This document shows positions 60,647-61,367 of a stretch of DNA of 64,000 bases, one piece after another. Location: contig OZ024743.1 of NCBI GenBank assembly GCA_964016885.1, positions 54,250,001 through 54,314,000 on the forward strand, in the 5' to 3' direction. The notes beneath the pieces were generated by a model. That model was not told where the DNA came from, ran no database searches, and worked only from the letters and a program-made list of their open reading frames with translations. Source of the stretch: Eledone cirrhosa. Lineage: Eukaryota. Position 1 is the first letter of the stretch. Each line of letters begins with the position of its first letter. A program made the position numbers and the translations under genes.

Positions 60647-60656
60647 TATATATAAT

Positions 60657-60702
60657 AGCCTTGATAAGCATCAAAAAATGCAGAAACAAGGCCTTGTCGG
60701 CT
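60657..60702 (+). ncRNA. Variant type I hammerhead (U3:A8 core)
   Basis: AGCC TTGATAA GCAT-CAAAAA-ATGC A GAAA CAAGGCCTT GTC GGCT. Confidence 0.7.
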
Positions 60703-60977
60703 TTATCTTCCCCTGTTTGCTGAGATTAAAGTAAGTGAGTCTGTCACTACTCTAAAACAATAGCATACGGTCTTCAAAATGCTTTTAATTAAGCATAAAG
60801 TGTATTGCAAAATACACTATATATACATTCATATATATATGGCTATTTCAGAGCTCCAATTCTAATTTTTAATTTCTGCCTGACCGGCAACCGTTCTGTA
60901 TAATCAGTTCCTGATTATTTACTAGAATTCTATAAGAATATAACATCAGTGATCTCAGTAGACGGGAGGGAGTAGTT

Positions 60978-61023
60978 AGCCTTGATAAGCATAAAAAAAT
61001 GCAGAAACAAGGCCTTGTCGGCT
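60978..61023 (+). ncRNA. Variant type I hammerhead (U3:A8 core), second copy
   Basis: AGCC TTGATAA GCAT-AAAAAA-ATGC A GAAA CAAGGCCTT GTC GGCT. Confidence 0.7.
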
Positions 61024-61367
61024 TTATCTCCCCCTGTTTACTGAGATTAAAGTAAGTGAGTCTGTCACTACTCTAAAACAATAGCATACGGTCTTCAAAA
61101 TGCTTTTAATTAAGCATAAAGTGTATTGCAAAATACACTATATATACATCCATATATATATTGCTATTTCAGAGCTCCAATTCTAATATATATATATATA
61201 TATATATATATATATATATATATATATATATATATATATATGTGTGTGTGTGTGTGTGTGTGTGTGTGTGTGTGTGTGTGTGTGTGAGTCCTGGGTTCAA
61301 TCGGGAGTAAATACTGTTAGTAAGGTTTGAGATATTTCTATATTCAATTATATATATATATATATAT

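Follow-up and report, generated by a model that had tools for sequence, protein, structure and literature searches.

Non-LTR retrozymes and the RNA circles that they form have been described in coral, mussel and axolotl, and the enzyme that mobilises animal retrozymes, as well as the manner in which the ribozyme is held in its off-state in the circle, are given there as open points (PMC7229834). In a preprint surveying vertebrates, the link of retrozymes to Penelope-like elements consists so far of co-occurrence and a tree, and one out of nine predicted Xenopus retrozyme dimers was cleaved in vitro (bioRxiv 10.64898/2026.07.22.740005). The 3:8 core pair of the hammerhead has been treated previously (PMC3884650); its U3:A8 form is known in nature and active in vitro (second-hand, through PMC3088659), with approximately 1,300 such motifs among the hammerheads of Penelope elements in Schistosoma (PMC4209133). 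Penelope-like elements display 5' truncation, partial tandems, an inverted 5' arm, microsatellite targets and a tail that is often one-ended (PMC8557442). For one of them, Poseidon of the anole, insertion proceeds without need for hammerhead cleavage and the main template is unprocessed RNA; both strands of the target are nicked, the protein is a predicted dimer, and two internal start sites bound the tail (PMC11167929). In cephalopods, the words hammerhead, ribozyme and retrozyme do not occur in the accessible text of an octopus repeat annotation (PMC13282606). The literature searched contained nothing on the family described below, on retrozymes with a U3:A8 core, or on a rule for long and short insertion ends backed by counts; subscription papers, repeat databases and supplements may hold such reports.

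The repeat studied in this work lies at positions 60656-61187 of the window, i.e., the 64,000-nucleotide stretch of Eledone cirrhosa DNA that was analysed. It resembles metazoan non-LTR retrozymes in its tandem non-coding units within the 150-450 bp range, each with one type I hammerhead, in its low GC content, in its self-paired monomer, and in a palindromic helix III suited to dimer cleavage. It differs from them in the U3:A8 core and an unusually long 12-nt palindrome, in a covarying self-blocking helix (most animal retrozyme circles being predicted, in the available descriptions, with the ribozyme free), and in occurring mostly as dispersed head-to-head insertions of 1-4 units with fixed paired ends. 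The Cercyon hammerheads of Schistosoma mansoni (PMC4209133) and the examples in PMC3088659 share the same core covariation and the tie to Penelope-like elements; as far as described there, the Schistosoma motifs are minimal and mostly single, whereas the present ones have helices of canonical size in a multimeric non-coding unit and are accompanied by a C3:G8 sister clade. The insertion marks and a hammerhead near the 3' end are common to endonuclease-bearing Penelope-like elements such as Neptune/Nematis and anole Poseidon (PMC11167929; PMC8557442, in part), from which the repeat differs in having no coding frame, the whole element being the 320-nt unit. Judged from its sequence, the family would constitute a variant of the non-LTR retrozymes; both the class and the U3:A8 core were already known, and the open questions could become testable through the switch of the core pair, the rule for the insertion ends and the blocking helix.

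Two hammerheads with a U3:A8 core

The insertion (60656..61187, forward strand, as are the features of the unit described here) is a single 5'-truncated arm of 1.66 head-to-tail units that ends at the fixed long end of the family. It has (TA)n on either side, with a shorter TA run at the 5' end (60645-60655) and, as the target on the 3' side, an (AT)n microsatellite (61188..61241). Each hammerhead copy comprises a 4-bp helix I, the core TTGATAA, a 4-bp helix II closed by a 6-nt loop, then an additional A, GAAA, the palindrome of 12 nt and C17, and the predicted cleavage site is GUC in both. In copy 1 (60657..60702), U3 is at 60661, A8 at 60666, the extra A at 60682 and the palindromic helix III at 60686-60697, with a predicted cut after 60698; this copy has no upstream partner for its extended helix I, and the locus may therefore release its monomer poorly. 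Copy 2 (60978..61023) is complete, with a predicted cut after 61019. Over their common bases the copies are identical at 206 of 211 positions, and the cut-to-cut period of 321 defines a predicted monomer at 60699..61019. The layout, cuts and period were recomputed and match those of an earlier note on this DNA, which had described two type I hammerheads with a U3:A8 core spaced by 321 nt. The motif scores 14 paired positions, and an equally strong match appeared in none of 20 Markov-shuffled windows.

The extended helix I is formed by a 5' strand (60951..60971) and a 3' strand (60707..60727, repeated at 61028-61048), as the purine run upstream of the hammerhead pairs with a downstream pyrimidine run. 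The earlier note had placed GGGAGGGA just upstream of the hammerhead and regarded this purine run, contained in the 5' strand, as a motif common to a 323-bp unit elsewhere in the window. At the locus, GGGAGGGA is found once (60964), ahead of copy 2 only, because copy 1 is 5'-truncated; the 323-bp neighbour does have the same layout, but the motif is not special, being the extension of helix I. In layout, the bulged helix I and the 6-nt loop 2 correspond to the canonical arrangement for a possible contact between loops 1 and 2. Further along the unit, the splice-donor-like sequence GTAAGT (60731..60736, with a second copy at 61052) occupies the positions reported before and is present in old and young clades; both hairpins noted previously are likewise in place, and a hairpin at 60799..60818 has a compensatory pair between clades (G-C 18, A-U 11). 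An internal TA tract (60831..60840) ends at unit position ~185 (61161 in copy 2), which is the short insertion end of the family, and a 26-nt tail (61162..61187; unit positions 186-211) separates the short from the long end.

In an Rfam scan of the locus, the best model was HH9, with 13.6 bits against a cut-off of 52. Relatives with a canonical core likewise stayed below the Rfam gathering score, so that the miss constitutes a limit of the models. The region has a GC content of 31%, and no reading frame of at least 90 codons overlaps the locus.

A dispersed non-coding family

The repeat is one member of a dispersed non-coding family of roughly a thousand copies in a 3.0-Gb genome that is rich in TA microsatellites. 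A similarity search of this genome with the repeat returned 1,963 candidates, and among the best 40 of these the full-length matches were 93-97% identical. A pattern made of the core and helix II, i.e., the descriptor search tolerant of U3:A8 that had been proposed earlier as a check, gave 1,063 matches, with none in the reversed control; among the first 100 of these, 96 were U3:A8, two C3:A8, two U3:G8 and none C3:G8, and approximately 8 in 100 belonged to another family. The former claim of a retrozyme-like tandem family is borne out by these dispersed copies, composed of tandem units with one type I hammerhead each. Cut-to-cut monomers measure 316-325 nt (n=53 in 100 loci). The extra A, present in both copies of the locus as first described, proved to be a subfamily trait only, found in 36 of 223 hammerheads.

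At one locus (L208, G000:C14:23499007-23508236), 28 hammerheads of the young lineage form an array with a 6-unit higher-order period; thus, amplification at the DNA level also happens, and a few segmental duplicates were found among the loci. Three runs of one sample, whose kind is not recorded, hold the family as contigs, which amounts to no independent support for expression.

Evolution of the 3:8 core pair

Older copies with a homologous body, approximately 27% diverged, yielded 3,634 candidates, of which the best 40 were scored and 30 fetched; the fetched copies carry the canonical C3:G8. The 3:8 pair was scored in 269 hammerheads from 160 loci and was U-A in 229, C-G in 28 and other in 12, that is, one of the two paired states in 257 of 269. 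An unrooted tree was built from 108 rows (171 rows were aligned, followed by thinning of the main subfamily and the addition of four), with the two core columns excluded. In this tree, C3:G8 forms a single clade of 27 rows with a support of 100, and the U3:A8 rows are arranged as a ladder of subfamilies, six or more in succession, in which multi-unit copies were kept; the rows with a mismatch (five C3:A8, one U3:G8) are scattered tips and founded no subfamily. Divergence to the nearest neighbour was 5.7% in the old copies versus 2.1% in the young ones. What is new here is this occurrence of an older canonical C3:G8 clade beside a ladder of younger U3:A8 subfamilies in one genome. In many hammerheads of the old clade (L241-L268), the basal pair of helix II is a U-U mismatch and position 17 is a U, as separate subfamily traits.

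The covariation across copies, another check proposed earlier, was assessed with 70 distinct hammerhead rows. Double changes occur in 9 of 13 pairs, and the covariation score was reached by none of 500 shuffles, a count that is not a probability since the shuffle ignores kinship; with slid partners the score was at most 0.10, compared to 0.41 for the real ones. In young subfamilies, which retain the U3:A8 core, compensatory changes are seen: the first pair of helix I is C-G in 190 and U-A in 22 cases, and the fourth pair of helix III is A-U in 174 and G-C in 30, a double change that preserves the palindrome. In the first 100 loci, variability was 1.3% in the core, 2.0% in the rest and 2.6% in the stems, being modestly lower in the core and not in the stems. 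Because mismatched 3:8 states are found only as single copies, and all three helices (I, II and III) show covariation, we conclude that selection acts on the fold. The claim that U3:A8 reflects selection rather than decay is thereby upheld, with C3:G8 relatives in the lineage, mismatched cores that found no subfamily, and covarying helices.

On the unrooted tree, the 3:8 switch occurred once, on a single long branch; judging by copy age and the universal consensus, we infer that it ran from C3:G8 to U3:A8. Helix II changed on the same branch, so a block may have been captured from another U3:A8 element. The helix II of intermediate copies is unlike that of the U3:A8 helper element described below, which argues for stepwise change. 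Genome pattern searches for canonical-core copies with a young helix II or III gave no matches. The natural C3:G8 and U3:A8 sister clades offer a ready pair for testing the tolerance of the core, and searches restricted to the canonical core would overlook more than 14,000 U3:A8 motif matches in this genome.

Predicted fold of the monomer and a blocking helix

The 321-nt monomer has a predicted fold of -89 kcal/mol (z = -5.9), and 12 natural monomers folded as circles gave z values from -3.4 to -10 (15 shuffles each). Among 29 monomers from across the subfamilies, 24 of 72 consensus pairs displayed double changes. The predicted ground state differs from the active fold: in it, the 5' strand of helix III is taken up by pairing with core positions 3-5 and with the 5' strand of helix I; in six copies, this blocking fold lies 0.4-7.9 kcal/mol below the constrained ribozyme fold in an energy model without tertiary terms. 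Two pairs of the blocking helix covary, and position 3 with 15.4 is C-G in 22, U-G in 21 and U-A in 19 cases, a covariation resting on only two or three independent events and lenient G-U pairing. This helix might act as an off-switch of the ribozyme, a suggestion from modelled folds to which we give somewhat less than even weight, precisely because the independent events are few and G-U is lenient. If so, it would offer a candidate answer to how the ribozyme stays off in the circle. Selection of U3 for the creation of this helix is not needed, since the C3 clade forms the same one. Between two copies, the palindrome is predicted to form a 12-bp duplex of -19.5 kcal/mol, and such palindromic helix III duplexes are a known route to dimer cleavage (PMC4209133).

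Anatomy of the insertions

The earlier note had contained nothing on the manner of insertion; here, a Penelope-type signature was recognised, the most informative evidence on the mechanism. Across 100 loci, we delimited 174 arms of at least 60 nt, of which 157 end at a fixed site, either the long site (87) or the short site located 26 nt earlier (70), and 17 elsewhere. Fixed-site arms run into TA in 140 of 157 cases (82 of 87 long-end and 58 of 70 short-end arms). The 5' ends of the arms are variable, and 98 arms exceed one unit, a figure in which long, intact copies are over-represented because loci were picked by similarity or an intact motif. No LTR-like ends were seen on the insertions. 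The 66 head-to-head pairs of this set comprise 50 long with short, four long-long, no short-short and 12 unassigned, their junctions being short overlaps (36), inserts (27) or blunt (3). In a wider, overlapping set of 167 loci with 104 pairs, the corresponding counts are 79, three, one and 21, so that 79 of 83 resolved pairs consist of one long and one short end. From this we infer that each DNA end of a target uses a different start site on the RNA. An L1-style collision by twin priming at the short site was considered and remained unsupported (8/79 vs 4.2 expected, p = 0.06).

The marks of Penelope-element insertion, namely 5' truncation, partial tandems, head-to-head arms, a one-ended tail and (TA)n targets, are all present in this family, and it is likely that the insertions were copied by Penelope-type retrotransposon enzymes. 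The insertion ends are direct genomic evidence for Penelope-type copying of a retrozyme, and through the rule of 79 in 83, the one-ended tail described before becomes a precise prediction for an existing in vitro system.

Template of the insertions

The frequency of rare variants common to units is 1.13 per kb for units in the same arm, 0.66 across arms and 0.05 across loci, and agreement at diagnostic sites is 0.97, 0.95 and 0.77, respectively. Two separate RNA molecules for the two arms were rejected as an explanation, divergence being 3.1% within an arm, 2.9% between arms and 4.7% between loci (within versus between arms, paired test p = 0.78, 44 loci); the similar divergence within and between arms indicates that both derive from one template lineage. 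A few loci (L007, L099) display private changes common within one arm only.

No excess of 5' ends was found at the cut site (6/272 vs 4.3 expected), which rules out linear cut monomers as the main template and leaves circles or uncut multimers. The RNA circle is probably the copied form. The opposite reading, which we regard as unlikely though well ahead of the remaining alternatives, keeps the same family, helper and working ribozyme and dispenses with the circle: the template would be a linear multimer that originates at tandem loci, and the hammerhead would only trim RNA from host transcripts, perhaps helped by protein. In the anole element, hammerhead cleavage is indeed dispensable, and protein-assisted in vitro (PMC11167929), and the 28-hammerhead array with its 6-unit period, which counts against a circle, could supply uncut multimers. 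Furthermore, arms that stop 11-19 nt downstream of the cut are more frequent at the long end (13/79 pairs) than at the short end (2/79), with a scan p of 0.0002 and a Fisher p of 0.005; this hotspot may mark cut 5' ends, as a linear template could produce, or a stall in the long stem. However, 5' ends are not in excess at the cut itself, and 5' truncation would erode a lineage copied from linear RNA, yet multi-unit copies persisted through six or more subfamilies in succession; in addition, the whole monomer adopts a closed, covarying predicted fold, and related animal repeats accumulate as circles (PMC7229834).

Candidate helper element

A search of the genome for Penelope-like endonucleases gave 96,582 candidates, the best 150 of which were scored. 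One Penelope-like family has a U3:A8 hammerhead of its own, with 13,580 pattern matches against none in the control, the first 100 all being U3:A8. A GIY-YIG frame (PF01541) carries this hammerhead at its 3' end, a link seen in L209 and L040, and related copies contain reverse transcriptase motifs and the C-X4-C-X2-C linker, a mark of Neptune/Nematis (PMC8557442). Head-to-head pairs of this family join a long and a short end in all eight resolved loci (four unassigned), and the last 7 nt of its long end are common with that of the retrozyme. Between the retrozyme and the autonomous elements compared, no extended sequence match was found, only TA-rich or 7-nt end matches; as the match to the helper is no longer than 7 nt, this Neptune/Nematis-type element with a U3:A8 hammerhead is a candidate helper only. 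The family is located at L209-L238, at L004:300-1320 and genome-wide, and covariation in helices I and II is seen in a related variant (L189-L195). The Penelope-like element located in the window itself was rejected as the source, having a different hammerhead and no real match.

Proposed cycle and alternative origins

Taking the circle aside, we are highly confident that the repeat is a ribozyme-bearing element copied by Penelope-type machinery. With good confidence, although less, we propose the full cycle: a non-coding tandem family of 316-325 nt whose RNA self-cleaves by a type I U3:A8 hammerhead, circularises, and is reverse-transcribed into (TA)n by a Penelope-like protein. The proposal builds on what was observed of the family, its copy number, the covariation of the fold, the C3:G8 sister clade, the fixed 3' and variable 5' ends, the head-to-head arms and the TA targets; self-cleavage through the U3:A8 hammerhead is likely as judged from motif and covariation. 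Read-through transcripts of at least two units would be cut at both hammerheads, aided by pairing of the 12-bp palindrome between copies. A host ligase would then close the monomer, and the covarying alternative helix would keep the ribozyme off in the circle. The helper would nick both strands of a TA tract, each DNA end priming at a different fixed internal site, one short and one long; copying would continue across the ribozyme junction, over about four units at most, and stop variably, and the two cDNAs would be joined head to head. A bolder version is offered tentatively, as a possibility that we would not yet back: a lineage of circular-RNA retroelements has been caught rewiring its catalytic pair from C3:G8 to U3:A8 while keeping the self-blocking helix through the same nucleotide, and the two nicked ends of one target always use different start sites, one long and one short.

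Two further origins fare worse than the linear multimer. The repeat could be no more than a pseudo-LTR at the end of an autonomous Penelope-like element, the coding body of which was not found; the insertion marks are the same as those of autonomous elements, and animal retrozymes are related to Xenopus pseudo-LTRs (bioRxiv 10.64898/2026.07.22.740005), but units directly abut in arrays of up to 28, the 40 unpaired arms have no common sequence abutting their 5' ends, and neither these arms nor the locus, free of any 90-codon frame, contain or adjoin a reverse transcriptase and GIY-YIG reading frame, which makes this origin highly improbable. More improbable still is a satellite-like DNA with a decayed ribozyme, spread by duplication and with U3 and A8 as fossil founder changes. 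Local amplification does occur (the 6-unit period, the few segmental duplicates) and the motif escapes Rfam, yet compensatory changes in helices I, II and III continued after the 3:8 switch, mismatched cores founded no subfamily, and reverse transcription is required to account for the fixed paired ends, the TA targets and the variability of the 5' ends.

Other elements in the window

The hammerhead of the 323-bp unit at 41345-42270 is a canonical C3:G8 one; the unit is accompanied on its left by an inverted arm, and it has a short end plus a tailed long end in TA repeats, as in the 321-bp family. It is likely another retrozyme family. At 4457-6430, a broken Penelope-like frame, with reverse transcriptase and endonuclease motifs recognised by eye and no Pfam match, is followed by two canonical-core hammerheads (7500 and 9232), and this family also has short and long ends. 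The sequence at 60070-60645 is a palindrome centred on TA, whose two sides match perfectly over 277 bp each, with approximately 25 extra nt at one outer end; it looks like another Penelope-type insertion and gives spurious Rfam microRNA matches. A Helitron-like element with a PIF1 helicase (21377-25914) and a broken LINE-type reverse transcriptase element (RVT_1; 233-3604) are also present. Hammerhead-like motifs of other families occur at 59884, 61471 (reverse strand) and 63772, and the flanks of the fetched loci hold several more hammerhead-like families.
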